Shown here: positions 1-56,417 of the stretch, piece after piece
How the letters are laid out: the number at the start of each line of letters is the position of its first letter
How positions within the stretch are numbered: position 1 is the first letter of the stretch
Assembly (NCBI GenBank): GCA_963842525.1
Contig: CAWJGT010000001.1
Span: 64,001 to 128,000, forward strand
Direction of reading: 5' to 3'
Length of the DNA: 64,000 nucleotides
Source: an uncultured Holophagales bacterium
GTDB lineage: Bacteria > Acidobacteriota > Thermoanaerobaculia > Multivoradales > UBA5704
Notes under the pieces: generated by a model
Seen by the model: the letters and a program-made list of their open reading frames with translations, nothing else
Told to the model about the DNA's origin: nothing
Databases searched by the model: none
Position numbers and translations under genes: made by a program

Positions 1-279
1 CTGTCGTCCATTACCCACGTCGCCAACGTGAAGACCCCCCTGATGCTGATCGAGGGGGAGGACGACCTCCGCACCCCGGCCTCGGCCGGCGGCGAGCAGA
101 TGTTCCGGGCCCTCAAGTACCTGAAGAGGCCGACCGTCATGGTGCGCTTCCCCGGAGAGACCCACGAGCTCTCCCGCTCCGGCCAGCCCTGGCACCGGAT
201 CGAGCGGCTGCAGCACATCCTGAGCTGGTTCGACAAGTACCTGCTGGGGAAGAAGATCGACCTCTACGACGCGCCGTGA
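1..279 (+). CDS. S9 family (prolyl oligopeptidase/acylaminoacyl peptidase) C-terminal part, truncated by window start
   Basis: Open from base 1; [23 protein letters not shown] (catalytic Asp) and [13 protein letters not shown] (catalytic His) match the S9 C-terminus. Confidence 0.9.
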
Positions 280-16063: not shown

Positions 16064-17720
16064 GTATCTGTTTACCGTCAGCGGCACTTTTGGGGAAGGT
16101 TTTCCCTGGACACACGTCCGCGCTGGCCAGGCGACCTGACGAGGGCGAGCGGCTACCGACCTGGAGCCACGGATAACTCGTGGCGAGAACTGTTACGGTG
16201 GCTGTGACGCAGGAAGTATTGCCTCAAGCTTCGGTAGCTGGGGGCTGCGCAGAAGCTGGGGCAAGATCTCGAGTGTCCCGACTTGGTGTTGCTGAAATGT
16301 GCGCAGGGCACTCATCAAGACCGCTTGCGCCTGGGACCCCTCGGCCGTCCGATTTCCCCCAGATGTCTTGCGGTTGATGACCGCCGGGCGAATCCCTTGT
16401 TCGGCCGGCCAATTGGTCGCCTCCACATCCGTGCGTTCCAGGAAGACAAACAGCTGCTCCTGGTGACGTATCAAATGCTGAGCCAGACGCTGGTTGTCGG
16501 GGTTCGTGAACTGCCCCGACAGACGCCTTTCCATCTGGAGCTCCAAGTTCTGCTTGACCTTCTCCAGCGCCTCGCCGCTGAGCTTGCCCGCGTCCCGCTG
16601 ATCTCGCGCCTCCAAGGCGGCCTGCAGGATCTCTTTCACCGCCCGAGGAAAGCGCACCGCACCCCCTGTCGCCTTCTCCAGCAGCTCCTCGCAACGGCGC
16701 AACAGATGCGCCAGACAGGTCTGATGAGTCGCTTCTTCAAATTTCTGATAGGGAGCCCAACCATCAGCCACCAGCACGCCGACAAAGCCCTCCCCCAGGA
16801 CCTCAGAGGCCTCGGCATAGCCACGACCCGGCTGGATGCTGTAGACCGTCTCGCTGCGATTGGTGAACACCCACAACCACACGCTATAGCCCCCCTCCCG
16901 CCAGCCCGTCTCGTCCGGGTACACCACAGGAGAGGCTCCGGATCTTCGCCTTCAGCTCCTCGTACAAGGGCTCCAGCTTCTTACTCATGCGAAGCAGCGC
17001 GCGGCACAGGGCCGAGCGCGACACAGACAGTCCAGCCACTCCTTCAGCAACGCGGCGATCTTGCCGTAGCTCAAGCCTCCGACCTTGTTGAGCCAGGCGG
17101 CGAGCCCCAACACGTTTGGACCGAGTTGCACGTTGCCGACCCGGAACGCCTGGGAAGTCTGGCGCGGGTGACGCCCCACAGCTTCCCGGCCACATGCCGA
17201 GCACTTCCCATAATGGAGGATGAACTCCGTCGTCACCGGCCGAATCGGCGGCAGATCGGTCTGATACTGGCGAGCTTCGCCCTGCGGAATGACCTGACCC
17301 CCACAGTGCTCACAATACAGCGGGCACTCCACCACGATGGTTTCGTCGACGTGATCGGGCACAGCTCGAGTCGCTTGCTGACCATATTGATCCCCGGCTT
17401 TGCGCCCTGGAGACTTGGGATCCTCGCTCGGATCTCCCTTCGAGAAGGGGGCAGCCTGGCGTTTGCCCCGGCGCCGTAGCTCCTCGACAAGTTTCTCCAG
17501 ATCGACGATTCGGCGCTTCAGGTGCGCAATCTGGCGCTCCTGCTCCTCCACCCGCTGGCGAAGCTCACCGTTGTCTTGGCGAAGCTCAGAGTTCTCTTGA
17601 AGGAGTTCCTCGTAAGTCGGCATGCCTGAAAGACATTAGACCATGCCGAGAAGAGAACTTCAAGCCCTTGCGGACGTGCCACCGCTCGGGGAAGGCGGCA
17701 CTAGGGCGGTAAACAGATAC
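16064..17720 (-). mobile_element. IS66-family insertion sequence with single transposase gene
   Basis: 14-bp terminal inverted repeats GTATCTGTTTACCG / CGGTAAACAGATAC; 8-bp target duplication GTCCGGAA at 16056-16063 and 17721-17728. Confidence 0.93.
16193..17623 (-). CDS. IS66-family transposase (two frameshifts)
   Basis: Coiled-coil N-terminus, CxxC zinc motifs, DETGWR, ADGWAPY, HQTCLAHLLR, TNWPAEQGIRPAVINRK. Confidence 0.88.
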
Positions 17721-20399: not shown

Positions 20400-22368
20400 A
20401 TGGAGAAACGCAACCCGGAGGACGGGCAGACCCCGGACCTCTACCTGGAGCGCGAGGACGACCTGCTGAACGACCTCGACCCCCACCTCCAGGAGCTGAT
20501 CCTGGCCCAACGCGCCGGCGAAGTGCCGGACAGCTCGATCGTTACGGATGTGAACGGAGTCTTCCGTGTGGACGTGATCGCGAAGCTGAGAAACCCGGAG
20601 GAGGAGGTCCCGGGGTTTCAGGTGGTGAGCACGATCGGCGACATCGTCACCGGCTCGGTCGCGCTGCCCGACATCGAGAGAGTCCGCCGGCACGACAACG
20701 TCAGGAGCCTCAAGGCGGCCACCCGTGTGCAGCCGATGCTGGACGCGTCGGTGCCGGAGGTGCGCTGTGACGCCGCGACGCTTCGCAATGCCTTCCCCGA
20801 CATTGACCAGGGGATCGACGGCAGGGGCGTGATCGTGGGGATCGTGGATATCGGTTGTGACTTCGCGCACAGGAGCTTCCTGGACGGTTCCAGCTCCCGC
20901 ATCCTCTCTCTCTGGGATCAGCGGGAGCGTAACGCCACAGAGCAGCGGCCTGTCCGTCCGACCGCGCCATCACCGGCGGGCTTCGGCTACGGCCGGGAAT
21001 TCACGCAAGCCCGGCTCAATGACGCCCTTGCCAAGAGCGATCCCTATGCGGACATCGATCATGAGCTGGCGGCAGCGGCCCACGGCACGCACGTCATGGA
21101 CATTGCGGCCGGGAACGGGCAGAACGGACAGCCCGGAGTGGCTCCCAGGGCCAGCCTGATTTTTGTCCATGTCGACATCGACGATGTCGCCGATTCCGAA
21201 TCGCTGGGCAATTCCCGGCGCCTGCTGGAAGCTGTCGAGTACATCTTCCGGAAAGCCGGCTCCACCCCTGTCGTCGTCAACCTCAGCCTCGGCACCCACG
21301 GCGGGCCGAAAGACGGCAGCACTCTCGTCGAGCAGGCCCTCGACCGGCAGCTCGAAACCGCCGGGCGGGCGACCGTGATCGCGGCGGGCAACTCCTTCAA
21401 CCTGCGGTCGCACGCTCAGGGCACGGTCCAGCCCGGCCAGCCGGTGACTCTATCCTGGGAGATCATCCCCTTCGACCGGACTCCCAACGAGTTGGAGGTC
21501 TGGTATGACTTCGCGGACGGATCCAGCCTGGAGGTTACCCTGACGGCCCCGAACGGCACGTCGCTGGGGCCTGTCCCGGTCGGGGAGACCTATGTGATCC
21601 GGAATCAGAATGGAATGAGGGTAGGGCGGGTCATCCACCGGAGGAGGGATCCAACAATGGCGACCGCCAGATCGACATCCTGCTCCAACCGTCTCTGTCG
21701 TCAGGGAGCTGGAAGGTCAGGCTGGAGGCCCGCGGCTCCCACCTGTTCCGTTCCATGCCTGGATCGAACGCGACGACTCGGCCAGTCCACCTTTACGCCA
21801 GCAGGAGAGCCGGACTCACACCCTGGGCTCGATTCCGCGGCCGGCGCACGATTGCGGTGGGCTCTCATGACCCGCGGGACCCGCAGCGCAGGCTTTCAGG
21901 GTTCTCCGCCTCGGGTCTACGCGGGATGGAAGGGCCAAGCCGGACGTGAGCGCACCGGGCCAGCACATCGTAGCTGCCAGAGCGCGCGGCGGCACCACGC
22001 AGAAACAGGGGACCAGCATGGCCGCCCCGCACGTGACCGGGCTCGTCGCGCTCATGCTCCAGGTCAACGGTGCGTTGTCCGCCCAGAAGATCCTGGACGC
22101 GCTGAAGCGCGGCACGGCGCAACCCGCCCGCCGGGACCGGGCAGGACGCACGGTACGGGAACGGCCGGATCGACGGCGTAGCGGCCCTGCAGGCGGTCCA
22201 GACGCCGGTCGCCGTCCTGGTACCGCCGCCTCAGGCCAATGTTGTGGTTCCTGTACCACTGGCAGAGGTCATTCCGTCCAACGGACATGCATAGTGCCGG
22301 CTCTGCTCGCCAGCCTGATCTCCGGTACCTATCGCATCGACGTCAACGTCGAGCGGCTCGAAAACTAG
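20400..22368 (+). CDS. S8 subtilisin-like protease (CspA-like with inserted beta domain), frameshifted
   Basis: IVGIVDIG (Asp), HGTHVMDIAAG (His), AAGN, GTSMAAPHVTG (Ser, in ORF 21946-22368); AGGAGG RBS; no signal peptide. Confidence 0.85.
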
Positions 22369-22420
22369 CAGCAGGCCAGGGTCGCGGCGCCTCTGTCGGC
22401 AGCGCCGCGGCCTCACGCGC

Positions 22421-23638
22421 TCACGGGTGATCCTCCTCCGGCTCTCCTTTCGGTCCCCAACGGGCATGGACCAGGCAACCGACCACTCCCACGGCAAAGG
22501 CGGCGTAGAACGGCCACCTCCGGTCGAGGGTCCACAGCCAGCCGCCGATCAGCGGGGCCGGGAACACGGCGAGGCCGCGGATCAGGTAATAGAGGCCGAC
22601 GGAGCGCCCGCGTGCCCCGGCGGCGGCGAGGTCGAGGATGAGCGCCTTGCGCGCCGGCTCGCCGGTCTCCCGCAGGCCGCCCACCACGAAGGCGGCGGTC
22701 AGCGCGGCGGGTCCGGCGGCGGTGGCGAGCGCCAACGGGAAGAGGGCGAAGAAGGCGAAGGTCAGGAGGACGAACGGCTTGCGGTTCATCCGGTCGGACA
22801 TCGTGGCGACCGGCAGGTAGACGAGGGTCGCGGCGATCATCTGGACGCTGGTCAGCCAGCCGAACTGGATCGCGGTGCCGCCCAGGACGTCGACGACGAA
22901 GAGGAGGATGAAGACCTTGGGGATGCCCTCGGCCCAGCGCGCCAGGACGTCGGCGGCGAGCAGCCGCTTGAGGCCCGGGTCCATCCGCCGCCAGAGGCTC
23001 CGCAGGTCCTGCGGATCGGCAGGCGGTGCCTCCCTTTCCTGATAGGCGCGCCGCAGGATCCAGATCCCCAGGAGTGCGAGGCCGATGGTGACCGCCACCC
23101 CGGCCCGCACACCGCCCTGCATGCCGAGGCCGACGATGAGGGCGCCCCCCAGCGGCGGCGCGAGGATGATCGGCACCCTTTTGAGGGTGGACTGCACCCC
23201 GAACCCGATCGCCCGTCTCTTGGAGGGTAGATGGTCGCCCAACACCGCGAAGATGGCCGGCAGCGTCAAGCTGCTCCAGGCCATGACGAGCACCGTGCCG
23301 GCCAGCACCCACGGCCAGCTCGGCGCCACCAGATAGAGGACATAGCCGGCGATGGCGAGCAGCGCGAAGAGGATCAGCGACGAGCGTCGGCCGAAGCGGT
23401 CCGCGAGCCAGCCGCCCGGGTAGGGATAGACGGCGTCGAGCAACTCACGAAGGGTCCCATAGAAGGCCACCCCCCACGCTCCGGCCCCGAGCACCTCCAG
23501 ATACTTGGGCACGAAGCGCACCCACAGCTCCTCGCCCATCCCCAGGACGAGGAATGCGGCGAGCATCGCGACGACGTTGCGCTCCAGCCCCAGGGAGGAG
23601 CGGAAGCGGGAGAGTGGCGGAGCGGCGGCGGGGAGCAC
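22421..23638 (-). CDS. MFS transporter
   Basis: About 12 hydrophobic segments; GGWLADRFGRR motif A and SDRMNRK. Confidence 0.9.
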   Translation of the reverse strand: MLPAAAPPLSRFRSSLGLERNVVAMLAAFLVLGMGEELWVRFVPKYLEVLGAGAWGVAFYGTLRELLDAVYPYPGGWLADRFGRRSSLILFALLAIAGYVLYLVAPSWPWVLAGTVLVMAWSSLTLPAIFAVLGDHLPSKRRAIGFGVQSTLKRVPIILAPPLGGALIVGLGMQGGVRAGVAVTIGLALLGIWILRRAYQEREAPPADPQDLRSLWRRMDPGLKRLLAADVLARWAEGIPKVFILLFVVDVLGGTAIQFGWLTSVQMIAATLVYLPVATMSDRMNRKPFVLLTFAFFALFPLALATAAGPAALTAAFVVGGLRETGEPARKALILDLAAAGARGRSVGLYYLIRGLAVFPAPLIGGWLWTLDRRWPFYAAFAVGVVGCLVHARWGPKGEPEEDHP

Positions 23639-23711
23639 GAAGGAGATTGTAATACATGTTGCTAGATGGAAACAGTAGTTTCACGCTGTGTCATGCTATT
23701 TGCGGGGGGGC

Positions 23712-23984
23712 GGGGTAGAGACGCCCCCAGTCCGTGACCACGAACCTGCCGGGTGCATACAGTCGGGGCGTCTCAAGGCCTCGCCCGCGAAACGGGTTCG
23801 CTCTTGCGCAGGAAACACGGATGGGATGGCTGTGCACAGGGACAGCCGGCCCGTCAGCGATGCGCGTACCGTGGACCCATCTCGGCGTCCACGGCGTGCT
23901 GTCGGCGTTGGTGGTATCTGGGGCCGTGAGTGAGACGCCCCGACTGTGTGCACCCGGTCAGTTTGGTCACGGACTGGGGCGTCT
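23712..23984. repeat. Inverted pair of GTAG-type REP-like palindromes (REPIN-like); right end continues at 25421-25427 after the IS
   Basis: GGGGTAGAGACGCCCC...GGGGCGTCTC at 23712-23774 and inverted copy GAGACGCCCC...GGGGCGTCT|CTACCCC. Confidence 0.8.
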
Positions 23985-24029
23985 TCTATGAGAAGGCCCC
24001 GAATGTCAAGGCCGCCTTGGCGGCCTTCC

Positions 24030-24230
24030 CTATCTGGCTTCAGAGCTGCGTCTGTCCCCGAGTCTTCTATCCGCACTCTCGAGGAGTCCGTCGCTTGGAC
24101 TCGGTGCATGATGGGGTTCCACCGCAGCGGCGCTGCTATCTCTACAGCGGCCTCGTAGGCTGAAGACGCCCAGCGCAGTCGCCGGCAGCGGGGGTTCGAA
24201 CGCGAGCTCCTATCGACCGTGGTTTCTCCT
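24030..24230 (-). ncRNA. Predicted bridge RNA / seekRNA of the IS1111 element (boundaries approximate)
   Basis: Segments matching the target flanks (24164-24171, 24139-24145) and donor ends (24110-24115, 24063-24070). Confidence 0.75.
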
Positions 24231-24259
24231 ACCTGAGATTTCCCCCTACCTGAGCTTTT

Positions 24260-25318
24260 TTACGCTGCTGCCGGCTGGCGGCACAGCTCGTAATCCTCGC
24301 CGCTGATCCAGAGCCGGTGCAGCAGCACCGCCAGTTTCCGGGCCACGGCCACCACCGCTCGCTTCTTGCCGTTTTTGCCTCCACGCCGCGCCAGTTCCAG
24401 TCCGAACCTGCGTAGATCGCTGTCCTGGCCGAAAGGACCGAGGATGTAGTGCGCGGCCTGCACCAGCAGCCAGCGCAACAGCCGGTCGCCCTGCTTGGTG
24501 ATCGGCAACTGCGGCGTCGAGCTGCCCGAGCTTCGACTTGCTGGCACCAATCCCAGGTAGGCCCCCACCGAACGCGAGCGAGCAAAACGATGCGGATCGT
24601 CCAGCGTCAACACGAAGACCAGAGACGTCAGCGCTCCCACTCCCTTGATCTGGCGCAACCGCTGCGTCACGGCAAAACGCTGCGCCCACGCCTCAATGTC
24701 TCGGTCAAAGCCCCCGATCCGCTCACTCAGATCAGCGATCACCGCCAACAGCGGCTCCAGAGAAGCCTTCAGCGTCTGCGGCAAGGCCTGCGACGCACTT
24801 CGGGCGAAGCTTTTCGCCGAGCACCCCGGCAGGCGAAAGCCGAACGACTTCACCATCCCGCGGACCTGGTTGACCAGCATCGTCCGGACCTTGACCAGAC
24901 CCTCCCGGGCGCGCACCACCGCCAAGGCTTGCTGCGCTTCCGGGCTTCGCGCGTGCACCGGACTGAGCAACTCCGGGTCCACTCGGCCCAACTGCGCCAG
25001 GCACCGGGCATCCCGCTCGTCGCTTTTGCGCAGGCTCGATGCGATCGCCCGAACCTTGCTGGGATTGGCGGTGATCACCTGGTGGCCCAAAGATTCCAAC
25101 AACCGCCGCACCCAGGGTGTGTGCGTCCCGCTCTCCAGGATGACCAAACACGGGCTTGCCCCTTCAAAGTAGCGCTGAAAGCTCGCCGAGGTCGTCGACA
25201 GACGCTTCTCTTCCAAGATCGCTCCCGTTTCTCGATCCAGACGACAGATCTGACTCGAACGGTCCCCAAGGTCTACGCCCACCACCGCCTCCACCTCCAC
25301 TCTGATAGCATTCTTCAT
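24260..25318 (-). CDS. IS110 family DEDD recombinase/transposase
   Basis: GVDLG, ILESG, KSDERDA, GAYLGLVPASRSSG, ITKQGDRLLR, AVVAVARKL. Confidence 0.95.
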   Translation of the reverse strand: MKNAIRVEVEAVVGVDLGDRSSQICRLDRETGAILEEKRLSTTSASFQRYFEGASPCLVILESGTHTPWVRRLLESLGHQVITANPSKVRAIASSLRKSDERDARCLAQLGRVDPELLSPVHARSPEAQQALAVVRAREGLVKVRTMLVNQVRGMVKSFGFRLPGCSAKSFARSASQALPQTLKASLEPLLAVIADLSERIGGFDRDIEAWAQRFAVTQRLRQIKGVGALTSLVFVLTLDDPHRFARSRSVGAYLGLVPASRSSGSSTPQLPITKQGDRLLRWLLVQAAHYILGPFGQDSDLRRFGLELARRGGKNGKKRAVVAVARKLAVLLHRLWISGEDYELCRQPAAA

Positions 25319-25420
25319 GGCCACCCTCCTTTCTTGCGCTTTCCAGCGCTTAAATATTCCCAGTTTGCAGGGCCATTTTAAGGCACTGCGCACCGGGAGG
25401 GTGGCCTTCTCATCCCATCT

Positions 25421-41958: not shown

Positions 41959-42543
41959 ATGACGAGGGGAGCGGAGCAACCGACCGACGAAGAGCTGGTT
42001 GCGGCGGTCCTCGACGGTGATCGGGATCGCTTCGGCGACCTGGTCGACCGATACCAGGGTCGCCTCGTCAATTATCTCTTCCGCTTGCTTCGCAACGTCG
42101 ACGACGCGCACGACCTCGCCCAGGAAGTGCTCGTCAAGGTGTACCAGGTGCTGGATCGGTACGATCCGCAATACAAGTTCTCGACCTGGCTGTTCCGGGT
42201 GGCGCAGAACGCGGCGATCGACCAGATCCGGCGGCGGCGTTTGAAGCTGGTCTCCATGCGGCAGGAAGGCGAGGAGGGGGAGGGGCGCGACTGGGACCTT
42301 CCGTCTCCGGAGCGCGGGCCGTATGGAGAGCTGCGCAATCAGGAGCGAGGCGATGCGATCCAGGAGGCGATCGAAGCTCTCCCCTGGGAGTACCGGGAGC
42401 TGATCCTCCTGCGGCACTTCGGCGAGCTCCCCTACGAAGAGATCGCGCAGCTCAAGCAGATGCCTCTCGGGACTGTGAAGAACAAGCTCTTCCGGGGACG
42501 GCAGATGCTCAAGGAGAGGTTGCAGGATTTCTTGTCGGATTGA
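41959..42543 (+). CDS. ECF sigma factor (SigW-like)
   Basis: DLAQEV, KFSTWLFRVAQN, YEEIA...GTVKNKLFRGR. Confidence 0.93.
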   Translation: MTRGAEQPTDEELVAAVLDGDRDRFGDLVDRYQGRLVNYLFRLLRNVDDAHDLAQEVLVKVYQVLDRYDPQYKFSTWLFRVAQNAAIDQIRRRRLKLVSMRQEGEEGEGRDWDLPSPERGPYGELRNQERGDAIQEAIEALPWEYRELILLRHFGELPYEEIAQLKQMPLGTVKNKLFRGRQMLKERLQDFLSD

Positions 42544-42578
42544 GATGAAACCGAGGGGATGTACCGAGGGGCGAGCTG

Positions 42579-43154
42579 ATGAGAAGGCCGGATCACAACA
42601 CCTACCGTGAATGGTTGAACCTGGACGTGGATGGGGAGCTGCCCCCGGCGCAGCGGGCCCAGCTCGACGAGCATCTCGCCTCCTGTCCGGACTGCCGGAG
42701 CGAGCGGCAAGAGATGCTCGCGTTCGAGCGTCTCCTCGTCGAGAACCGTGTGCCGGTGCGGCCGGGCTTCAGCGACAAGGTGCTCGCGTCGCTGCCCGCG
42801 GCGGGCTGGGAGAGCCGTTCGCCCCGGACCTGGAGCTTCCCGGCGGCCGTGGCGGTGCTGCTCGCCGGCATCGCGGCGGCGCTCCTGGGGTCGGCCCGGA
42901 TGGGCTCCTCCTCGTCGGTGCTGTCGACGCTCTCCGCGGTGGGCGGCATGCTCCAGGCGACCCTCCAGGCGGGCGCCGGCCTGCTCGCCGTCTCCTGGAA
43001 GGGGCTCGGCCTGGTCTTCACCGAGGCCTTGACCTCTCCCATGAGCCTCGGGGCCTTCGTCTTCCTGGTGCTCTGCCTCAACCTCCTGCTGATCTCCCTC
43101 GTGCGCCGGCGGCGGCCGGCGGCGGCCGCCGCAAGGAAGGGGAACGGGGCTTAG
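42579..43154 (+). CDS. zf-HC2 membrane anti-sigma factor
   Basis: HLASCPDC; transmembrane segments. Confidence 0.85.
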   Translation: MRRPDHNTYREWLNLDVDGELPPAQRAQLDEHLASCPDCRSERQEMLAFERLLVENRVPVRPGFSDKVLASLPAAGWESRSPRTWSFPAAVAVLLAGIAAALLGSARMGSSSSVLSTLSAVGGMLQATLQAGAGLLAVSWKGLGLVFTEALTSPMSLGAFVFLVLCLNLLLISLVRRRRPAAAAARKGNGA

Positions 43155-47394: not shown

Positions 47395-48255
47395 ATGCAA
47401 GAAATTCGAACGATTGGTGTCGTCGGCGCCGGAACGATGGGACACGGCATCGCCCAGGTTGCGGCCCAGAGCGGCTTCCAGGTCGTGCTGGTCGATGCGG
47501 CTCCCGTTGCGCTGGAGCGCGGGATCGCGCAGATCGGCAAGAGTCTCGAAAAGCTGGTGGGCAAGGGCAAGCTGACGGCCGAGGCCCGCGAGCACGCCCT
47601 CGCCCGCCTCCGGTCCGCGTCGCAGCTCGCGGCCCTGGAGAGCGCCGACCTGGTCGTCGAGGCCGTGGTCGAGAAGCTCGAGGTCAAGCAGGAGGTCCTC
47701 GCCGAGCTGGACCGCATCTGTGCGCCGCAGGCGATCCTGGCCTCCAACACGAGCTCGATCTCGATCACCCGGCTGGCCGCCGCCACCTCGCGGCCCGGGA
47801 AGGTGATCGGCCTGCACTTCATGAACCCGGTGCCGCTGATGCAGCTCGTCGAGATCATCCGCGGCCTGGCCACCAGCCAGGAGACCTACGACGCCGTCGA
47901 GGCGGCGTCGCGGGCCATGGGCAAGACGCCGGTCGAGGTCCACGACGCTCCCGGCTTCGTCTCCAACCGGGTTCTCATGCCGATGATCAACGAGGCGGTC
48001 TTCTGCCTCCACGAAGGAGTCGGGAAGGCCGAGGCGATCGACGAGGTTATGAAACTGGGGATGAATCACCCGATGGGACCGCTCGCGCTCGCCGATCTGA
48101 TCGGCCTCGACGTCTGCCTGGACATCCTGCGCGTGCTCCACGACGGGTTCGGCGATCCGAAATACCGGCCCTGCCCGCTGCTGGTCAAGATGGTCGATGC
48201 CGGCTATCTCGGCCGCAAGAGCGGGCGCGGCTTCTACGTCTACGACCGCGGCTGA
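47395..48255 (+). CDS. hbd: 3-hydroxybutyryl-CoA dehydrogenase
   Basis: [26 protein letters not shown]. Confidence 0.93.
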
Positions 48256-48271
48256 TGGAGACGAGGTGAAG

Positions 48272-50116
48272 ATGTACTGCCAGGTCTGTGGCGCGCCCAA
48301 CCGGGACGACCACGAATACTGCGTCCGCTGCCACCAGAAGCTGCTGGTGCTGTCGGGGACGCTGCGCGAGGACGAGGACTCCTACGACGAGTCGGCCGAG
48401 GAGAGCTTCTCGTTCGACGAGCATCTCCTGGAGCGCATCTCGATCCTCGAAGAGGCCGTCAAGCGGACGGCCGAGACCGTCCGGCAGCTCCTCTCCGCGC
48501 TGCACAAGCAGGAGAAGAACATCCTCATCAACCAGACCGGCCTGTCGGCTCTGCGCGAGCTGCTGGAGCAGAAGCACTACATCGGCTGGGAGGAATGGAG
48601 CGAGCTCTGGGAGTCCAAGATGGACTACCAGCTCCTCGCCCTGGAGAAGCGGGAGCGCTTCCTCGCCATCAAGGAGCGGATCGCCGCCCTCCACCACGGC
48701 GACAAGCGCAAGCTCTTCCTCCAGCACCTGGAGGACGCCGAATACGCCCTCTTCGCCTTCGACATCGAGCGCGCCGTGGCAGCCCTGGAATCGGCCTACA
48801 AGCTGGACCGCGACAACTACGAGCTGGCCTATTTCCTCGGCGAGACCCACTTCAACGAAGGCGACGCCGAGCAGGCCCTTGCCTACTTTTCGCGCGTCCT
48901 GGAGGTCAAGACAGACCACTACGAGGGGCTCGTCTACAGCGGCGTCATCTACTATGAGCGGGGCGACCACACCCGCGCCGAGGAGCACCTGAAGCGCGCC
49001 GTCGCGATCTACCCGGACAGCTTCCTGCCGCATTTCAGCCTCGGCGCGGTCTATGCCGGCCAGGGCAACCTGGCCCGGGCGGTTCTCTTCCTCGAGCGGG
49101 CTGTCGAGCTCGACGCAGTGCCGCAGGCGCTCTATTTGCTGGGAAGCTGCTACTACGAGATGGGCAAGCTCTCGTCTGCCACCCGCTACCTCCAGGAGGC
49201 GGTGCGGCACGATCCGGCCTTCGAGGAGGCCCATCACCTCCTGGGCCTCGCCTATCTCGACCGGCACTGGACGCGCAAGGCGCTCGACGCCTTCCGCCAG
49301 GCGCAGCGGCTCAACCCGAAGAAGCTCCAGTACCACGACCTGGTGCGCTACCTCTCGGGCACCTCGGGCACGCCGCTCCCCGGCGTGCATGGCGAGGCGG
49401 AGGCCTGGTTCAAGAAAGGGGAAGAGTTCCTTGCCCGCGACAACCTGAAGCAGGCGCACGCCTCCTATCGCCGGGCCCTGTCCCTCGATCCCGAGAACCC
49501 GACGCTGCTCATGTCCTACGCCCTGCTCTGCCTGCACCTCGACCGCAGCCAGGAGATCGAGGCGATCACCCGCAAGGTGCTGGACCTGAACCCGGGCGAG
49601 ATGCTCAAGGCCACGGCATCCGCGGCCCTGATCGAGGCGCTGCGCAGCCAGGGGAAGTTCCGCGAGGGCAACCGCATCGGCCGGCGCCTCCTCGACGAGG
49701 GGAGCTCCAACTTCGCCAAGTCGATCGCCTACTACGAGATGGCCTACAACCTGGCGGAGATGGAGGAGGACCTCGACGAGGCCCTGGACTTCGCCCGTCA
49801 GTCGGTCGAGCTGGCTCCCGAGGAGATCAAGCAGTTCCCGCTGGCCGCTCTCGGCTGGGTGCACTACAAGCGCAAGGAGTTCGACAAGGCGGTCGACTTC
49901 CTCTCGAAGTCGAGCGAGCTCGGCGCTTCGCACACGACGCTGACCCACCTGGGGATGGCCCTTCTCGCCTCCGGCCAGGAGGACCGCGCGCGCAACATCC
50001 TGGCCCACGCCCGGACGGTCGGCAGCCGCGGCGAGGCGCTCCAGGAAAAGATGATGGAGTGCATGAAGGACTCCACGCGCCTGCTGGAGAGGGTGCGCCG
50101 CGGCCAGCGGCGATGA
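48272..50116 (+). CDS. Zinc-ribbon TPR protein
   Basis: CQVC...CVRC N-terminus, multiple TPRs. Confidence 0.85.
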   Translation: MYCQVCGAPNRDDHEYCVRCHQKLLVLSGTLREDEDSYDESAEESFSFDEHLLERISILEEAVKRTAETVRQLLSALHKQEKNILINQTGLSALRELLEQKHYIGWEEWSELWESKMDYQLLALEKRERFLAIKERIAALHHGDKRKLFLQHLEDAEYALFAFDIERAVAALESAYKLDRDNYELAYFLGETHFNEGDAEQALAYFSRVLEVKTDHYEGLVYSGVIYYERGDHTRAEEHLKRAVAIYPDSFLPHFSLGAVYAGQGNLARAVLFLERAVELDAVPQALYLLGSCYYEMGKLSSATRYLQEAVRHDPAFEEAHHLLGLAYLDRHWTRKALDAFRQAQRLNPKKLQYHDLVRYLSGTSGTPLPGVHGEAEAWFKKGEEFLARDNLKQAHASYRRALSLDPENPTLLMSYALLCLHLDRSQEIEAITRKVLDLNPGEMLKATASAALIEALRSQGKFREGNRIGRRLLDEGSSNFAKSIAYYEMAYNLAEMEEDLDEALDFARQSVELAPEEIKQFPLAALGWVHYKRKEFDKAVDFLSKSSELGASHTTLTHLGMALLASGQEDRARNILAHARTVGSRGEALQEKMMECMKDSTRLLERVRRGQRR

Positions 50117-51087
50117 GCGACCCGACTCTCCCCGACATCCCGGACGTCCTGGCCGCCCGCCGTGCGCTGGCGGGAGTCGTTCTGCGCACCCCGGTGCTTC
50201 GCTCAGACGCTCTCGACGAGTTGGCCGGCGCCCGGCTTTTTTTCAAGGCCGAATGTCTGCAGATCACCGGCTCCTTCAAAGTCCGTGGGGCGTACAACCG
50301 GGTGCGGTCGTTCTCGCCGGAGGAGCTCGCTCCAGGCCTGATCACGGTGAGCGCCGGCAACGCCGCCCTCGGGGCCGCCTGGGCAGCCCGCGCGCTCGGC
50401 GCCCGGCTCGTCGTCGTGATGCCCGAGAACGCCGTACCCGAGAAGCTCGCCGCGGTCGCCGCGCTGGGAGCCTGCATCGAGAAGGAGGGAGTCACCAACG
50501 CCACCCAGGCCTTCGAGCGCCTGGCACGCCTGCGCGAAGAGCACGGCTACACCCTGGTCCATCCCTTCGACGACCCCTACGTGATTGCCGGCGCCGGCAC
50601 GGCGACCTGGGAGCTGCTGGAGGATGTGCCCGACCTGGAGGCCCTGGCCTTGCCCGCCTCAGGAGGAGGACCGCTTTCAGGAGCCCTGCTCGCCGCCCGC
50701 GGCCTCGCGCCGTCGGCCCGGGTCTATGGCGTCCAGGCGGAGGGCGCGGACGGTATCGTGCGTTCGCTCGCAGCCGGGCAGCCCACCGCGCCTGAACGGA
50801 TACAGACCGTCGCCGACGGCCTCACCGCGCCGAAGCCAGGGGCCCTCAACTTCGAGCTGATCCGCCGCTGGGCCGCGGGCGTCTTCACGGTCCCCGACAA
50901 GGCGATCCTGGAAGCGATGGGGTTGATCCTCCGGAACCTCAAGGTCATCGTCGAGCCCGCCGGCGCCGCCGCCCTGGCCGGCGTCCTGGCCGACGAGAGG
51001 TTCCGCAGCCGACGGGTGGGCGTCCTTCTGAGCGGCAGCAACACCGGCATGGAGCGGGTGCGCGAGGTGCTTTCCTCCACGAAATGA
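50113..51087 (+). CDS. Threonine/serine dehydratase (PLP)
   Basis: TGSFKVRGA, SAGN, HPFDD, GGG loop, VEPAGA. Confidence 0.9.
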   Translation: MSDPTLPDIPDVLAARRALAGVVLRTPVLRSDALDELAGARLFFKAECLQITGSFKVRGAYNRVRSFSPEELAPGLITVSAGNAALGAAWAARALGARLVVVMPENAVPEKLAAVAALGACIEKEGVTNATQAFERLARLREEHGYTLVHPFDDPYVIAGAGTATWELLEDVPDLEALALPASGGGPLSGALLAARGLAPSARVYGVQAEGADGIVRSLAAGQPTAPERIQTVADGLTAPKPGALNFELIRRWAAGVFTVPDKAILEAMGLILRNLKVIVEPAGAAALAGVLADERFRSRRVGVLLSGSNTGMERVREVLSSTK

Positions 51088-51088
51088 A

Positions 51089-51119
51089 ACGACCCGGGGG
51101 AGTCATCCACCCGGGTCGT
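51089..51119. terminator. Hairpin between convergent genes
   Basis: ACGACCCGGG / CCCGGGTCGT 10-bp stem; U-rich tail on the minus strand. Confidence 0.6.
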
Positions 51120-51154
51120 CGAGGAGCGTGCTTCGAAGGGGGCGTGCCTGCGGC

Positions 51155-52426
51155 TCAGGCCTCGTCGGTGGCCAGGCGATTGGCGCGGACGCGACTGGCC
51201 ACCTCCGCCAGCAGAGTCATGTTGACCGCCTCGCGCTCGGCTGCCTCGTGGATCATCTTGAGGGCGGCGAGTGCCTCCGGATCGACTTTGCGGATCTGAA
51301 ACAGCCGGACCAGATCCTGGGCGACCCGCAGCACCTCGACCGCCTGACCCTGCTTCGCATAGACAGCGACCAAGTCGAGACCTGCCAGTGCCGCGTCATA
51401 GCTGTAGCCATGCTCGGTGAGCTTGTCCACGGCCTCGGTCAACAGCCGGCTGGCCATCTCCAGATCCTCGCCGAGCTCGCGGGCAATCAGGCCTTCCATC
51501 CAGATGCGGCGGCTTGTGGTCAACGGATCGGAATATTGCAGATAGAGATGACGGTTCTGCTGGTACAGCTCGGCGGCTTCCCGCGCCGAGCCGCAGAGCA
51601 CCAGGGTCGAGATCAGGTTGTGACGGATGTGGAGCGCGAGCCAGGGGTCCACAGCGAGGGGCATGGCCTTCCGGAGGGAAGCCACCGCCTGTTCAAGGTT
51701 CCGCTGCTCCTGATAGATGAGGGCGCGGATGATCTCCAGGCGAGCCACCTGATTGTGATCGCGGAGAGTCGTGAAGGTCGCCTCCGCCCGGTCGAGGAGC
51801 GCGAGGGCCGCTGGAAACTGCCGGAAATCACGTCGCAACGAGGCTTCGAGGAGGTCGATCCTTGCCGCCAGGTCTGGATCGGCACCGCCCCTCTCGAGCA
51901 CGTTGCGGGCTTCGAAGAAGCACACCAGCGCATCGCGGATTTCACCCGCCACGCGCAGGGCGTTGCCTTCCATGGCGATCGCATACGCTTCGAGATCAGC
52001 AAGCGCGGCCATACCGCCGCAGGTCCGGGGATCGGTCTGGCTTGCGATGGAGCCGGCGAGCCGTGCGAGCTCTCGCGCCAGCGTCGGATCGTGAAACACC
52101 GCCTTCGCGCAGCGCTCCAGAATGTAAGAGGCGAGGGTATATGTCTGGTATCGGACATCCACCAGGACCGCTGCCTCGCGATCCAGGGATGGCATGGCCA
52201 ACAGCTCCGCGAGCCGGGTCGGAGTCTCGGCGCGCTCCTCGCTGATCCGTTCCGCACGGCCCATGGCCTCGACGATCGACCTCTCCAGGAAAGAGGGCTC
52301 ATCGATCCCCTCTTCACGAGGCTCGCGCGCGTGTTCAACAGCCACCAGAGAGACATCCTTGCTCTCGAGCTTCCGCACAAGCGCCCGCATCAACGTTCCT
52401 GCCCGTCTGCCCTTCCGATCCTCCAT
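51155..52426 (-). CDS. Cytoplasmic TPR-like all-helical protein
   Basis: Helical repeats (GNALRVAG, FPAALALLDRAE, EGLIARELG); no signal peptide; RBS before ATG 52426. Confidence 0.8.
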   Translation of the reverse strand: MEDRKGRRAGTLMRALVRKLESKDVSLVAVEHAREPREEGIDEPSFLERSIVEAMGRAERISEERAETPTRLAELLAMPSLDREAAVLVDVRYQTYTLASYILERCAKAVFHDPTLARELARLAGSIASQTDPRTCGGMAALADLEAYAIAMEGNALRVAGEIRDALVCFFEARNVLERGGADPDLAARIDLLEASLRRDFRQFPAALALLDRAEATFTTLRDHNQVARLEIIRALIYQEQRNLEQAVASLRKAMPLAVDPWLALHIRHNLISTLVLCGSAREAAELYQQNRHLYLQYSDPLTTSRRIWMEGLIARELGEDLEMASRLLTEAVDKLTEHGYSYDAALAGLDLVAVYAKQGQAVEVLRVAQDLVRLFQIRKVDPEALAALKMIHEAAEREAVNMTLLAEVASRVRANRLATDEA

Positions 52427-52491
52427 AAACCCCCCTTTGATGCTAAAGCATTGCTCGCCTGCTGGCTCCAATGGCATCTGCTCTGCGTAGA

Positions 52492-52779
52492 TCACCACCC
52501 GCCATTTGGATCCATTCCCACTCCTGCTTCCGCCGAACTCGGCCTAGCCGCCCCCATTGCATTCCCTCCGCCGTCGTCTCCGGGGATGAGCGGAACGCCT
52601 TGGACCGTAGCCAGGGCCGAGTCGAACAGAAACACCATCCAACCCCATGCCTCGGCCAGCGGGCTTGGGGAGCCCATGACCGGCCCATGCTGCGGCAGCG
52701 GACTTGCAAACACCGCTCCGGAGCCCACCAGCAAGGCCAATAGCGCCACCCCCACTCGCAGCTTCATTCCACGAAACAT
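52492..52779 (-). CDS. Small secreted peptide precursor ending GVGMDPNGGW
   Basis: GAGGGGGAG RBS; signal peptide MFRGMKLRVGVALLALLVGSGAVFA; 95 aa. Confidence 0.75.
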   Translation of the reverse strand: MFRGMKLRVGVALLALLVGSGAVFASPLPQHGPVMGSPSPLAEAWGWMVFLFDSALATVQGVPLIPGDDGGGNAMGAARPSSAEAGVGMDPNGGW

Positions 52780-53163
52780 ACGATTCTCCCCCTCGGAAGT
52801 TACAGGCCCATCATGGGCCGCCGGCTGCACACTGTACTGCTCTACAACCTAGAGTGCACGCCAACGGTGAAAAGGAGCCGCCTACAGAGAACTTCCTTGT
52901 CCCACGATCCCAGGGGCCCGACTTCTCTCGACTCACAACTCTTGATCGGCCTCTAGAATACCACACGTCTCCTCGCGCAACGTCAATCCCTCAAAGACCT
53001 CAAGCCGCCGGGCCCGCCCGGACCCACCGCTCCAGCGACCGGGACCGCGAAACGCGGCCCGGCTTGGCGGTCCGTGTCACCGCGTCGCGTGGTCCCTGCC
53101 ATGCGGACCGCGGTCGCTGTCGCCGGGACCGCAGATCCAGTGAGCCATCTGAGAGGCCCCGGC

Positions 53164-53209
53164 TTGACAACATCGGACGTCCCGCTTACTGTACCGCATG
53201 TATAACACA
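53164..53209 (+). promoter_or_regulatory. Sigma70 promoter and YtrA-type operator
   Basis: TTGACA (53164) - 17 bp - TACTGT (53187); imperfect palindrome TGTACCGCATGTATAACACA at 53190-53209. Confidence 0.7.
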
Positions 53210-53211
53210 CC

Positions 53212-53607
53212 GTGATGATCCTGCGCATCGAGCCCGCCGACCCCCGCCCGATCTGGAGGCAGATCGAGGAGGGGGTGCAGAACCTGGTGGCGAGCGGCGC
53301 GCTCCCCGCCGGTACCGCCGTCCCGTCGGTGCGCGACCTTGCGCGGGACCTCCAGGTGAACCCGGCCACGGTGTCGAAGGCCTATCAGCGGCTCACCGAT
53401 GCCGGGGTGCTCGCCGTGCGTCGGGGCGAGGGGACGTTCGTCTCCGCCACCCCACCCTCCCTGCCGATGGAGACCCGCCGGCAGAAGCTGCACCACGGCG
53501 CCGTGCGTTACGCCAGCCTGGGGATCACTCTGGGGGTCAGCCGCGAGGAGGCGATCGAGAGCCTTGCGGAGGTCTGGCGGAGCCTGGTCGATGGAGGAGA
53601 GGAATGA
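53212..53607 (+). CDS. GntR family (YtrA subfamily) regulator
   Basis: PIWRQI, PSVRDLARDLQVNPATVSKAY, RRGEGTFV. Confidence 0.92.
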   Translation: MMILRIEPADPRPIWRQIEEGVQNLVASGALPAGTAVPSVRDLARDLQVNPATVSKAYQRLTDAGVLAVRRGEGTFVSATPPSLPMETRRQKLHHGAVRYASLGITLGVSREEAIESLAEVWRSLVDGGEE

Positions 53608-54486
53608 GCCTGATTCGGGTCGAAGCCCTGACCGTCCGCTACGGCCGCCGCCGCGCACTCGACGGCGTGTCGTTCGAGGTGCCTGAAGGATCGGTCTACG
53701 CCCTGCTGGGCCGCAACGGAGCGGGCAAGTCGTCGCTCGTGCGCTGCCTCCTCGGCACGCAACGCGCCGCAGCGGGCCGCGCAGTGCTCTTCGACCGGGA
53801 CGTCTGGCGGGCGCGCGCCGCGGTCCTCGCGGAGGTCGGCGTGGTCCCTGAGGAGCCGGACGCGCCGCAGACCATGTCCGCGCTCCAGCTTTCCCGTTTT
53901 TGTGCCCGCCTCTACCCGCGCTGGGACGAGGCCGGCCTGCGCGCACGGCTGGAGCGGTTCCGGGTCCCCGCGGACCTGGCCTTCGGCCGGCTTTCGAAGG
54001 GGCAGAAGGCCCAGGTGTCTCTCGCCCTTGCCCTCGCCCCCACGCCGCGCCTCCTGATCCTGGACGACCCGACGCTGGGGCTCGACCCGGTGGCGCGGCG
54101 GTCGGTCTTCGACGAGCTGATCGGCGAGCTGGCCGACCGCGGAACCACGGTCTTCCTCACCAGCCACGACCTGGCGGGGGTCGAAGGGATCGCCGACCGG
54201 GCCGGTATCCTGCAGGACGGGCGCCTGCTGGTCGACGAGGAGGTCGAGAGCCTCAAGCAGAGGTTCCGCCGCATCAGCCTCCCGGGCGCGGCGGAGGCTC
54301 CGGAAGCTCGCGGAGCTGGCACCCCTCGCAGTCGCTGTCCGCGGCTGGGGGGTGGAAGCCGTGGTCGGCGGTTGGGACGAGGATCGGTCCACGGACCTGC
54401 TGTACGGCCCCGGGGACCGCGCCGAGGTCTCGGCCCTGACGCTCGAGGAGATCTTCCTCGCCCTGGTGGAAGGAGACCGCCGGTGA
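53604..54486 (+). CDS. ABC transporter ATP-binding protein (frameshift near 54305)
   Basis: GRNGAGKS, LSKGQ, ILDDPT, SH; TLEEIFLAL tail in shifted frame. Confidence 0.88.
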
Positions 54487-56417
54487 GAGGTTTCGTTGCC
54501 GTCGTCCGTCGTGAGATCGCCGAATACCGTCTCCTCTTCCCCGCTGCCTTCCTGATCGGGCTGGTCGCCCTGGCGACGCCCTGGCTGCCCGGTACTCGCG
54601 GCCACGCCCCTGCTGATCTCCGCGGCGCTGCCGCGTTCTCCCTTGCTGCCATCGTCACCCTCGTCCTTTCCGTGGTGCTGGGGTCTTCGGTCTTCGCGCG
54701 CGATCTGGCAGAGAGACGGCTGGGTTTCTATTTCGCGCGTCCCCTGCCGGGATGGGCCCTATGGGCCGGCAAGCTGGTCGCCGCCGTGATCCTCGCTCTC
54801 GCCGCCGGAATCCTGGTGCTCGTGCCCTCGGTTGCCGCCGGCGGGCACATGGACCTGGGTGGTTCCTGGTGGCTCGGCGGCCTGCTGCCGGGGGATGTCG
54901 GGGAGCTGGTCCCCTTCCTGATCCTCGGAGTGCTCTCGCTCCTGCTCGCCGCGCACACCTTGAGCACCATGGTCCGCGCGCGGTCCCCCTGGCTCCTGCT
55001 CGACCTCCTGGCCGCCCTCGCCGTGGCCGCCGCCTTCCAGGCCTGCCGGGGAAGCCTGTTGAGCGAGGGCGCGGTCGAGGCGTTCAACCGGGGCGCTACC
55101 CTTTTCTTCCTGGCCATTTTTTTCTCTGCGCTGCTGGCCAGCGCGGTCCAGGTGATCCGTGGGCGGACGGACCTCCGCCGTGGGCACCGCCTGCTCTCCC
55201 TCACGCTCTGGGGATGCCTGGGGATCGCCAGCGCGGCTTTTGCGGGCTATGCCGGCTGGGTCCTCCGTGTCGAGCCCGAAGACCTGACCCAGCTCGATCG
55301 CATCGTTCCGGCCCCGGCCGGTACCTGGATCGGACTGGCGGGAGGGACCTCAGGCCGCGGGAGGCTCTACCGGCCGGCGTTCCTCTTCGACGCGGCATCG
55401 GGCCGGTTCCTCCGTATCCGGAACGCGGGCTACGACTACTACTGGTGGCACCAGCCTTTCTTTTCGGCCGACGGGCGGCGGGCGGTCTGGCTGGACCACC
55501 ACACCCACGCCGTGCAGAGCCTGGACCTCGCCCGGCCCGGGGCCGAGCCGGTCAGCCTGCCGGTCGTCTATCCGGACTTGCCGCGGTACATCGTCATGTC
55601 CCCCGGCGGGACCCGGATCGCCGCTCTCCGCGACGATCGGCTGACTGTCGACGATCTGTCGGCGGGGCGGCTCCTTGCCTCGGTGCCGACGAGGTTCGAC
55701 TACGGCGACCGGGCCGTCTTCGTGGACGAACAGCGGCTCCGGATCTACCGGACCTCCCGCGACCCCGCGTCGGCCCTGAGCGGGCGCCGGCATCTCGAGA
55801 TCCTGGAGCTCGACGTCGACGCCCGCCGCCTCCGCACGCTCGGTCGGCTGGCGTACGGCGGCGGGCTCTGGTCCATGAGCCCCGATGGGGAGCACATCCT
55901 CCTGCGGGAGAACCACAAAGAGGCCCGGCTGGTCGACGTGGGCACCGGCAGGACCCTCACCTCGATCGCAGCGGAACCGTTGCTGGTCGCCGAGGATTTC
56001 CTCGCCGACGGCAGGATCGTCCTGGTCAGCCGGGATCCGTCACGGCAGCGGACGACTTTGACGGTGCTGGACCGGGACGGTACCGAGCGCAGCCGCGCTG
56101 TCTTCGCGGCGAGCCGCCTCCTCCTCGGCGGGCAGCCTCTGCCCGGGTCGCTGGTGGTGGCCACGAGCCGCGTGCGTGGGAGCTACACCTCCCAGCGCTG
56201 GACCTCCTGGCTGGTTGACCTCGCGACGGGCCGCGTGCGGACGCTCGGCCAGGGTCTGGTGCCGGTGACCGTTCGCCCTATCGGCCCCCAGAGCATCGCC
56301 TCGCGGCTGTTCGCCACGGGGCATGGTGGCCTCGTCCTCCTCGACCCGGTCACCGGCCGCCGGCGGACCGTACTGGAACCAGGCTCTCCTGACCTCGGTT
56401 CTCCTGACACCCCCTGA
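54483..56417 (+). CDS. ABC permease-like membrane protein with C-terminal beta-propeller
   Basis: RLGFYFARPL, several TM helices, SxDG/SPGG propeller-like repeats. Confidence 0.75.
   Translation: MRGFVAVVRREIAEYRLLFPAAFLIGLVALATPWLPGTRGHAPADLRGAAAFSLAAIVTLVLSVVLGSSVFARDLAERRLGFYFARPLPGWALWAGKLVAAVILALAAGILVLVPSVAAGGHMDLGGSWWLGGLLPGDVGELVPFLILGVLSLLLAAHTLSTMVRARSPWLLLDLLAALAVAAAFQACRGSLLSEGAVEAFNRGATLFFLAIFFSALLASAVQVIRGRTDLRRGHRLLSLTLWGCLGIASAAFAGYAGWVLRVEPEDLTQLDRIVPAPAGTWIGLAGGTSGRGRLYRPAFLFDAASGRFLRIRNAGYDYYWWHQPFFSADGRRAVWLDHHTHAVQSLDLARPGAEPVSLPVVYPDLPRYIVMSPGGTRIAALRDDRLTVDDLSAGRLLASVPTRFDYGDRAVFVDEQRLRIYRTSRDPASALSGRRHLEILELDVDARRLRTLGRLAYGGGLWSMSPDGEHILLRENHKEARLVDVGTGRTLTSIAAEPLLVAEDFLADGRIVLVSRDPSRQRTTLTVLDRDGTERSRAVFAASRLLLGGQPLPGSLVVATSRVRGSYTSQRWTSWLVDLATGRVRTLGQGLVPVTVRPIGPQSIASRLFATGHGGLVLLDPVTGRRRTVLEPGSPDLGSPDTP

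Follow-up and report, generated by a model that had tools for sequence, protein, structure and literature searches.

The locus

The subject of this study is a pair of adjacent genes in a 64,000-nucleotide stretch of DNA (hereafter the window) from an uncultured Holophagales bacterium of the class Thermoanaerobaculia (Acidobacteriota): a small open reading frame (ORF) for a predicted secreted precursor and, downstream on the same strand, a gene for a cytoplasmic protein with tetratricopeptide repeats (TPRs). The initial annotation had proposed the two as a candidate peptide signalling pair. The features of the pair are as follows, with structures taken from AlphaFold2 (AF2) models.

52492-52779, (-) strand: small ORF of 95 amino acids, precursor of an "IDPNG" secreted-protein family (P0001); the stop codon is 52492-52494
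52705-52779, (-) strand: predicted Sec signal peptide, residues 1-25, cut after VFA (sequence judged by eye)
52600-52662, (-) strand: Trp-rich amphipathic helix, residues 40-60 (PLAEAWGWMVFLFDSALATVQ), predicted by AF2 with a local confidence (pLDDT) of about 80
52501-52530, (-) strand: core motif E-A-G-V-G-M-D-P-N-G, residues 84-93, followed by GW and the stop codon
52427-52491, (-) strand: 65-bp intergenic spacer with a G-rich Shine-Dalgarno-like run ahead of the TPR start codon
51155-52426, (-) strand: 423-amino-acid cytoplasmic TPR-solenoid protein (P0002), candidate receptor or partner
52364-52423, (-) strand: N-terminal basic amphipathic helix, residues 2-21, then a disordered linker, residues 23-39 (AF2)
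51182-52141, (-) strand: TPR superhelix, residues 96-415, with 16 helices in about eight pairs (AF2)

The properties that the initial annotation ascribed to the small ORF (a ribosome-binding site, a signal peptide, a Trp-rich stretch, a Gly-rich linker and the motif at the end) are all present in the sequence, and its spacing to a 423-amino-acid helical-repeat protein without a signal peptide is exact: the TPR ATG lies 65 bp past the stop of the small ORF (52427-52491). An alternative in-frame GTG at 52498 would give a protein of 447 amino acids, yet 17 of 21 aligned homologs start at the position equivalent to the ATG. A scan of 50900-53400 revealed no terminator and one weak promoter-like site on the opposite strand; the consensus used was of the E. 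coli type, so this is weak evidence. Rfam gave nothing at E ≤ 0.1 over 50500-53700.

For comparison, one genome-contig profile search with the alignment of TPR homologs yielded 20 loci (L001-L020). The gene neighbourhoods described below are those of these 20 loci, which do not include the neighbourhoods of the zinc-motif relatives or of most Cys-type peptides.

A conserved small gene with a predicted export signal

The N-terminus of the small protein combines a basic n-region (MFRGMKLR), a hydrophobic core and the site VFA/SP, which, judged by eye, fits Sec export and signal peptidase I. AF2 places a helix at residues 2-24 of this region; the equivalent site in relatives reads AHA/LP or AQA/LP, and a crude A-x-A...P pattern was found in 114 of 120 relatives. 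Next comes the Trp-rich stretch LAEAWGWMVFLF, lying within the AF2 helix of residues 40-60, then a Gly-rich linker and the C-terminal end ...EAGVGMDPNGGW. A Shine-Dalgarno-like run, GAGGGGGAG, stops 6 nt ahead of the ATG. The AF2 model, built on a 120-sequence alignment, contains the signal helix and the Trp helix only (mean pLDDT 66.5, predicted template modelling score pTM 0.33), and the C-terminal third is disordered. On this model, the missing compact fold argues weakly against a folded effector.

Conservation is concentrated in two places. In the Trp helix, W45 is nearly invariant in both alignments of the small protein (22 and 120 sequences) and W47 in the 22-sequence alignment only; a W..W pattern occurs in 113 of the 120 family members. 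In the motif, G86, D90, P91 and G93 are nearly invariant across the 120 sequences. The codons of 13 related loci set the motif apart from the linker. Over the 11 codons of the motif region, nucleotide differences at codon positions 1, 2 and 3 number 127, 175 and 376, and the codon differences divide into 242 synonymous and 234 non-synonymous; for the linker the corresponding values are 692, 716 and 795, and 192 synonymous and 934 non-synonymous. Because these splits differ, the motif is under purifying selection in the frame of the small ORF and the linker is nearly free to change.

A word-based search with the single protein returned no more than two relatives, at about 60% identity; both have the same G-x-G-[MI]-DPNGGW end. 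Run against the public protein set, the profile of 22 small proteins matched 150 predicted proteins at E ≤ 0.01. Among the best 120 of these 150, lengths range from 82 to 140 amino acids, all are annotated as "hypothetical", and the four with organism names are from Thermoanaerobaculia. Neither Pfam nor NCBIfam assigned a family to the small protein or to four relatives submitted with it. In the ESM Atlas its nearest clusters (score 0.90) are unnamed Acidobacteriota proteins of 85-90 amino acids without a Pfam family. PADLOC, run on both window proteins and on two relatives with a helix-turn-helix (HTH) domain, returned generic HTH matches only.

The repeated I-D-P-x-G motif

Across the family the motif follows the consensus (D/E/K)-x-G-x-x-[IM]-D-P-[NSD]-G, each copy having an acidic or basic residue, any residue and G at its front. 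In the 120 precursors analysed, one copy is present in 44, two in 42, three in 23, four in 10 and five in 1, so that 76 of the 120 hold two to five copies. Two forms can be distinguished, and Cys-flanked copies occur in 51 of the 120 members. The linear form (98 occurrences; values in percent) reads D61/K27/E8 - x - G92 - [SGV] - F84 - I96 - D100 - P100 - N88/D12 - G100. The Cys-flanked form (149 occurrences) reads E38/D34/K18 - x - G100 - C100 - x - I79 - D100 - P97 - N44/S30/D23 - G100 - x - C79. The expectation that the DPNG end would be conserved was borne out for the motif itself, in which D and G are invariant and P reaches 97-100% over the 247 occurrences; it did not hold for the strictly C-terminal position, since 0 to 30 residues follow the last copy over the 120 precursors (0 to 2 in 68 of them).

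Single-copy linear precursors from L005, L008, L011, L012 and L016 retain a decayed first copy (e.g. ...GRVSFFQVT...), which sits exactly at the position of a full ...AGVFIDPNG in the two-copy precursors of L013 and L014. This pattern in the sequences suggests that the ancestral precursor had two copies.

The TPR protein

No 19-residue window of the 423-amino-acid protein exceeds 1.6 on the Kyte-Doolittle hydropathy scale, and no transmembrane or signal segment was found. Searches against Pfam and NCBIfam detected no enzyme family and, as the initial annotation had noted, no HTH in the window protein; its relatives may carry an XRE-type HTH or a zinc anti-sigma-like N-terminus (see below). TPR matches remained below threshold (Pfam TPR_12, E 0.0064), and the fold is apparent from the model. 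AF2 (pLDDT 85.4) predicts the basic helix, the disordered linker, a long helix and then the 16-helix superhelix. In a Foldseek comparison with the PDB, LGN/Pins comes first by E-value (1e-6), and the best TM-score belongs to RapJ with its peptide (4gyo; TMq 0.58, root-mean-square deviation 4.9 Å); RapH, RapF, RapI, NprR, the Rap of phage phi3T and MalT domain III are also listed.

Invariant residues gather on the first helix of each pair (60 of 136 residues, compared with 25 of 128 on the other), and 27 of them there, compared with 4, are polar or aromatic; examples of the invariant polar ones are N155, R158, R189, R198, R199, R306 and E311. In standard TPR geometry, the first helices line the concave face. 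Two residues of the N-terminal helix, R14 and L16, are nearly invariant as well. This helix aligns with helix 1 of the zinc-motif relatives P0243 and P0244, without their H-x3-C-x2-C, and we propose it as the output element.

The protein has 251 homologs at E ≤ 0.001. The best 120 of these are about 423 amino acids long and 55-88% identical to it, apart from a few shorter entries, one of which is a 285-amino-acid fragment that matches the window protein at every residue. The housekeeping neighbours of the TPR protein are more strongly conserved. A full scan with a hidden Markov model opened a much larger family, with 5484 representatives (clusters at 50% identity) at E ≤ 0.001 and 786 at E ≤ 1e-30. 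The best 150 representatives are mostly of 440-460 amino acids, lengthened at the N-terminus by about 60 residues. In their first 120 residues, 40 of the 150 have a strict H-x3-C-x2-C and many more have relaxed versions. Pfam, applied to 111 of the 150, found TPR_12 in 103, zf-HC2 in 3 and HTH_3 in 1; HTH_3 (XRE-type) is also carried by L019, L020 and the second paralog of L018 (L018-T2). The N-terminal modules thus vary among relatives, and one TPR module on differing N-termini is what would be expected of a sensor domain with exchangeable outputs. All named homologs and all named loci of the pair are from Thermoanaerobaculia, Holophagales or Acidobacteriota metagenome-assembled genomes (MAGs).

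A third N-terminal type on the TPR module, ...SLGTVF...PDLRE[FY]LEHL..., was seen in P0254, P0257, P0265, P0267, P0302 and P0331. It has neither the zinc motif nor an HTH and bears no family name.

Linkage of the two genes

A small ORF of like build stands beside the TPR homolog in 19 of the 20 loci, as the initial annotation had anticipated, including two distant non-syntenic loci with another gene orientation. In all 17 close loci (TPR proteins 55-67% identical) it lies directly upstream on the same strand and encodes a signal peptide (typically ...AHA/LP), a W-x-W helix, a variable linker and [FYS]-[IM]-D-P-[NL]-G near the end. These loci are syntenic throughout: a GntR-family gene and an ATP-binding cassette (ABC) ATPase gene are shared by 16 of 17 and a PALP enzyme gene by 14 of 17, and a zinc-ribbon TPR protein was found in every close locus that extends far enough.

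Three distant TPR homologs (L018-L020, 31-35% identity) are without any other neighbour from the window. In L018 (TPR protein 31% identical) and L019 (34%) the peptide gene lies 70 bp and 18 bp, respectively, beyond the end of the TPR gene, in convergent orientation; it encodes a signal peptide, a Trp helix and three or four units of the form (E/D)xG-C-x-[IM]-D-[PG]-[NDS]-G-x-C. L018 also has a second paralog (HTH_3 plus TPR, 50% identical to the first), divergent and 143 bp from the start of the peptide gene. The linkage of the two genes has survived rearrangement. Eleven exact coincidences of contig size between the listed TPR matches and the listed small-protein matches point to linkage as well, as do the adjacent locus tags VH394_31480 and VH394_31485. 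Neither the 20 loci nor the 64-kb window yielded a further member of the small family; because the sequences searched had themselves gone into the profile, only the absence of further matches is informative. Upstream of the peptide gene, no inverted repeats were found in L018 and L019, and the window has three GC-rich imperfect pairs.

The distant HTH-TPR homologs form local paralog clusters (L018, 3867-7325; L019, 4473-7675; L020, 4551-6926). Two full paralogs flank the peptide gene in L018; the second gene of L019 consists of two tandem HTH-plus-linker units without the TPR part; and L020 reads as one ORF made of a truncated copy and a full copy.

Comparison with known peptide-receptor systems

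The accessible text of PMC10075063 describes RRNPP systems operationally by a propeptide of 10-100 amino acids, a Sec signal, a receptor of 250-500 amino acids, TPRs and direct adjacency, with a receptor-propeptide gap of -50 to 191 bp in the reference systems. All five traits are found in the pair. The propeptide has 95 amino acids; its Sec (SPI) signal is indicated by features judged by eye and by the AF2 helix; the candidate receptor has 423 amino acids; its TPRs are indicated by the AF2 solenoid, the family profile and the 103 of 111 relatives with TPR_12; and the genes are 65 bp apart on the same strand in the window and 18-143 bp apart in L018 and L019. The window protein's own Pfam TPR matches would fail the profile threshold given in the accessible part of PMC10075063. 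The host is also different: it is an acidobacterium, not a member of the Bacillota, a plasmid or a phage, and the portion of PMC12700828 available to us places the RRNPP family in Bacillota and their mobile elements. Membership of RRNPP by descent is not shown by these sequences, because sequence homology is lacking and the host phylum differs. The interpretation offered in the initial annotation is supported in part.

The closest likeness is to Rap-Phr of Bacillus, where a Sec-exported small precursor adjoins a cytoplasmic HTH-less TPR-solenoid receptor of about 400 amino acids with an N-terminal helical part. Internal duplication is a second likeness, as intragenic duplications of the signal are reported for Phr-type propeptides in the accessible text of PMC10075063. 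The differences are several. The host of the window is a diderm acidobacterium and not one of the Bacillota, and the sequence searches revealed no homology; the core motif, instead of diversifying, has stayed nearly invariant across the family, and the exported part holds a conserved Trp helix. Gene order differs too: in rap-phr pairs the peptide gene lies downstream of the receptor gene, whereas in the window it lies upstream.

The receptors with an HTH (PlcR-PapR, Rgg-SHP, PrgX, AimR-AimP) find a parallel in the relatives from L018-L020, which join an XRE-type HTH_3 to the TPR module; in L018 and L019 the HTH-TPR genes adjoin a secreted multi-copy peptide gene, and L018 includes a divergent arrangement, as is the case for rgg/shp. 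The window protein, unlike these, has no HTH, and the L019 protein has no sequence match to RRNPP chains in the PDB. Peptides of the L018/L019 type are Cys-flanked nine-residue loops, which to our knowledge have not been described for RRNPP signals. The TPR solenoids of LGN/Pins and kinesin light chain, which bind extended peptides in their concave groove, give the best Foldseek E-values and are significant by profile; however, these scaffold proteins are eukaryotic and no gene for a ligand is genetically paired with them, and the likeness shows the TPR class, not the function. Many TPR relatives start with the H-x3-C-x2-C of zinc anti-sigma factors (zf-HC2), and the first helix of the window protein aligns with theirs, but the window protein has no such His/Cys motif and no adjacent sigma factor gene. 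A role of the window protein as a zinc anti-sigma factor was ruled out on these two grounds. No literature was found on the IDPNG motif in bacteria or on RRNPP-like systems in Acidobacteria.

Proposed mechanism and its weight

We read the pair, with a confidence that stays somewhat short of even, as a two-gene peptide-signal/receptor system of the Rap-Phr kind on a Thermoanaerobaculia (Acidobacteriota) chromosome. The 95-amino-acid precursor would be exported by Sec and its signal peptide removed. The exported part, consisting of the Trp helix, the fast-evolving linker and (D/E)xGxx-I-D-P-N-G, would then be cut to a short IDPNG-containing peptide; in relatives, two to five peptides may be released per precursor, many of them as Cys-Cys loops. 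The peptide would re-enter the cell, where the cytoplasmic TPR protein would bind it in its concave groove, which is polar and conserved. Because the window TPR protein has no DNA-binding domain, it would act in a Rap-like manner, altering its contact with another protein, probably via the N-terminal basic helix; in relatives the TPR module is joined to an XRE HTH or to an N-terminus of the zinc anti-sigma-like kind. As a family, our best reading is a new, unnamed group of Thermoanaerobaculia with the operational RRNPP signature, Rap-like in being HTH-less.

A number of observations weigh against this interpretation. The profile of the TPR family gave 27 matches at E ≤ 10 against all PDB sequences, which are generic TPR proteins and include no RRNPP receptor (Rap, NprR, PlcR, Rgg, AimR and PrgX were sought), and the HTH-TPR protein of L019 gave a single, unrelated match. 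A broader TPR profile confirmed the TPR class (Pins, 2e-18), and the best 60 of its 146 matches likewise included no RRNPP receptor. The Foldseek likeness to Rap and NprR (probability 1.0, TMq 0.44-0.58) ranks below LGN by E-value, and the structural likeness, as modelled, is generic to long TPR solenoids, the top E-values belonging to the eukaryotic LGN/Pins.

The genetic evidence has its own counterweights. Since 17 of the 19 positive loci are syntenic, they amount to little more than one observation, and L020 has a TPR homolog without a peptide gene within the locus. The test for covariation between motif and TPR protein, based on two independent N-to-L motif changes (L003 and L015) and thus of low power, revealed one shared private TPR column only, at residue 9, outside the repeats. 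As regards the mechanism, I-D-P-x-G is near-invariant family-wide, whereas the pheromones of known RRNPP systems have diverged into distinct types; a core shared so widely could confer little specificity except through the residues on either side of it. A mere pro-region would not account for the strong conservation of the Trp helix. On its way back in, the peptide would have two membranes to pass, and neither the window nor the loci showed an oligopeptide importer gene.

Alternative explanations

The same data can be arranged differently. According to one alternative, which we consider unlikely, the TPR protein holds the precursor by its C-terminal IDPNG until export, as a form of secretion-coupled feedback or chaperoning, and export frees the TPR protein for its partner, which in relatives would be a sigma factor or DNA. 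A similar logic is known from the TPR class II chaperones of type III secretion, SicA and IpgC, and from FlgM. This scheme requires no import step. Both proteins are made in one compartment from genes 65 bp apart on the same strand with no terminator-like site between them, the motif stands at or near the C-terminus (in 68 of 120 precursors within two residues of it), and a motif that is invariant across the family would be more natural in a housekeeping interaction than in a signal specific to strains; the fold and the conserved groove of the TPR protein fit this scheme equally. Sec substrates with ordinary signal peptides, however, are not known to us to need TPR chaperones. The multiple Cys-flanked copies suggest disulfide loops formed outside the cytoplasm, and the convergent and divergent genes in L018 and L019 do not suggest stoichiometric co-expression.

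A second alternative, which we regard as improbable to the same degree, takes the small protein for an extracellular or periplasmic effector (e.g. a membrane-active Trp-helix peptide, or a repeat binding a metal or a partner) whose expression is controlled by regulators of the TPR family, the peptide never being a ligand; the HTH-less version in the window would be a co-regulator. It would account for the relatives in which DNA-binding or anti-sigma-like N-termini adjoin the peptide gene, and for the Trp-rich amphipathic helix being conserved like the motif, which suggests that the whole exported protein matters. The low-power covariation test, which gave no sign of motif-TPR covariation, also sides with it. 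Yet the TPR protein of the window has no DNA-binding domain, the small protein is predicted to have no fold beyond one helix, and variable copy number with neutral linkers suits a releasable unit better than a fixed effector.

Far less probable is a precursor resembling those of ribosomally synthesised and post-translationally modified peptides (RiPPs), with the TPR protein as a scaffold or recognition partner in the modification of the IDPNG core. The multi-core precursors, with conserved cores and a conserved helix as a possible recognition sequence, would suit it. The initial annotation had allowed for such a peptide-modification module, but no modifying enzyme is conserved with the pair, and within about 5 kb none is common to close and distant loci. 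The sole nearby enzyme, of PALP fold, belongs to the general synteny (14 of 17 close loci); its absence from L018-L020 ruled it out as the modifying enzyme. In addition, RiPP leaders do not typically begin with a Sec signal peptide, and the TPR protein matches no enzyme family.

Finally, the window is GC-rich and holds many spurious ORFs (59 of at least 40 amino acids in 8 kb), and the first word-based search found only two homologs, but the idea that the small ORF is a chance frame, with the TPR gene standing alone, has practically no probability left: it is refuted by the small-protein alignment (frame, signal peptide, Trp helix and motif kept in 19 of 20 loci), by the 150 profile matches and by the third-position bias of substitutions in the motif, and a ribosome-binding site is present. 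Both genes are real and conserved.

Other genes of the window

Beyond the pair, the genes that follow were noted in its immediate surroundings and in a mobile or accessory gene patch (15284-25393).

53212-53607, (+) strand: small GntR-family regulator, divergent (Pfam), shared by 16 of 17 close loci but not by L018-L020
53604-56417, (+) strand: ABC ATPase and membrane protein after the GntR gene, syntenic in close relatives only
15284-16087: CHAT-domain protein
16196-16927: IS66-family transposase
17704-19449: 582-amino-acid TPR_12 protein
20064-22178: subtilase
24263-25393: IS110-family transposase

The GntR/ABC operon was considered as a third component of the system and was ruled out by its absence from L018-L020. 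Its ABC ATPase gene (53604-54500, (+) strand) appears frameshifted, with a break near 54293-54316: in comparison with intact homologs (L002, L007), residues 1-233 lie in one frame and residues 242-288 in another, and the first frame continues stop-free into the downstream membrane protein up to 56417. The break could be a sequencing or assembly error, or the gene could be a pseudogene.

Two genes away from the pair, 48197-50116 ((+) strand) encodes a 639-amino-acid protein with a zinc ribbon and multiple TPRs. It is unusually conserved, with 85-90% identity across MAGs in which the TPR protein of the pair reaches only 55-67%. At 41959-43151 ((+) strand), 9 kb from the pair, a gene for an extracytoplasmic function (ECF) sigma factor (41959-42540) is followed by its own zf-HC2 anti-sigma partner gene; in no other locus examined is this sigma factor linked to the pair. 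Near the start of the window (267-2065, (-) strand), an AAA_15/AAA_21 ATPase gene (869-2065) is followed by a gene for a DUF4276 protein (267-869), and the pairing looks like a two-gene accessory module.

Significance

In the accessible parts of PMC10075063 and PMC12700828, peptide signalling through cytoplasmic TPR proteins is described only for Bacillota and mobile elements. The available portion of the latter describes the search for an outgroup as open and notes that one traced by remote structural homology would be of help in rooting the RRNPP family. We hold the broadest form of our proposal to be less likely than not. It would make the pair the first system of a diderm phylum in which a cytoplasmic TPR receptor senses a peptide pheromone. 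Such a family would span Thermoanaerobaculia; its precursors would release one to five IDPNG peptides, many of them disulfide-closed nonapeptide loops, and one TPR module would serve three outputs (XRE HTH, zinc anti-sigma-like, and protein contact alone). If this is true, either RRNPP logic has arisen a second time by convergence, or the outgroup long sought for the RRNPP family has been found.

With the pair comes a candidate ligand, short enough to be synthesised, for a protein family that is large (786 representatives at E ≤ 1e-30) and uncharacterised. Should binding fail, the pair would still define two unnamed, tightly linked protein families. Should the proposal prove correct, it would bring to light a new peptide chemistry, built on an invariant I-D-P-x-G turn that often lies in a Cys-Cys loop, and a single sensor module re-used with DNA-binding, anti-sigma-like or bare outputs. 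It would mean that diderm soil bacteria, too, sense gene-encoded peptides inside the cell, and it would provide a handle on regulation in a mostly uncultured class.

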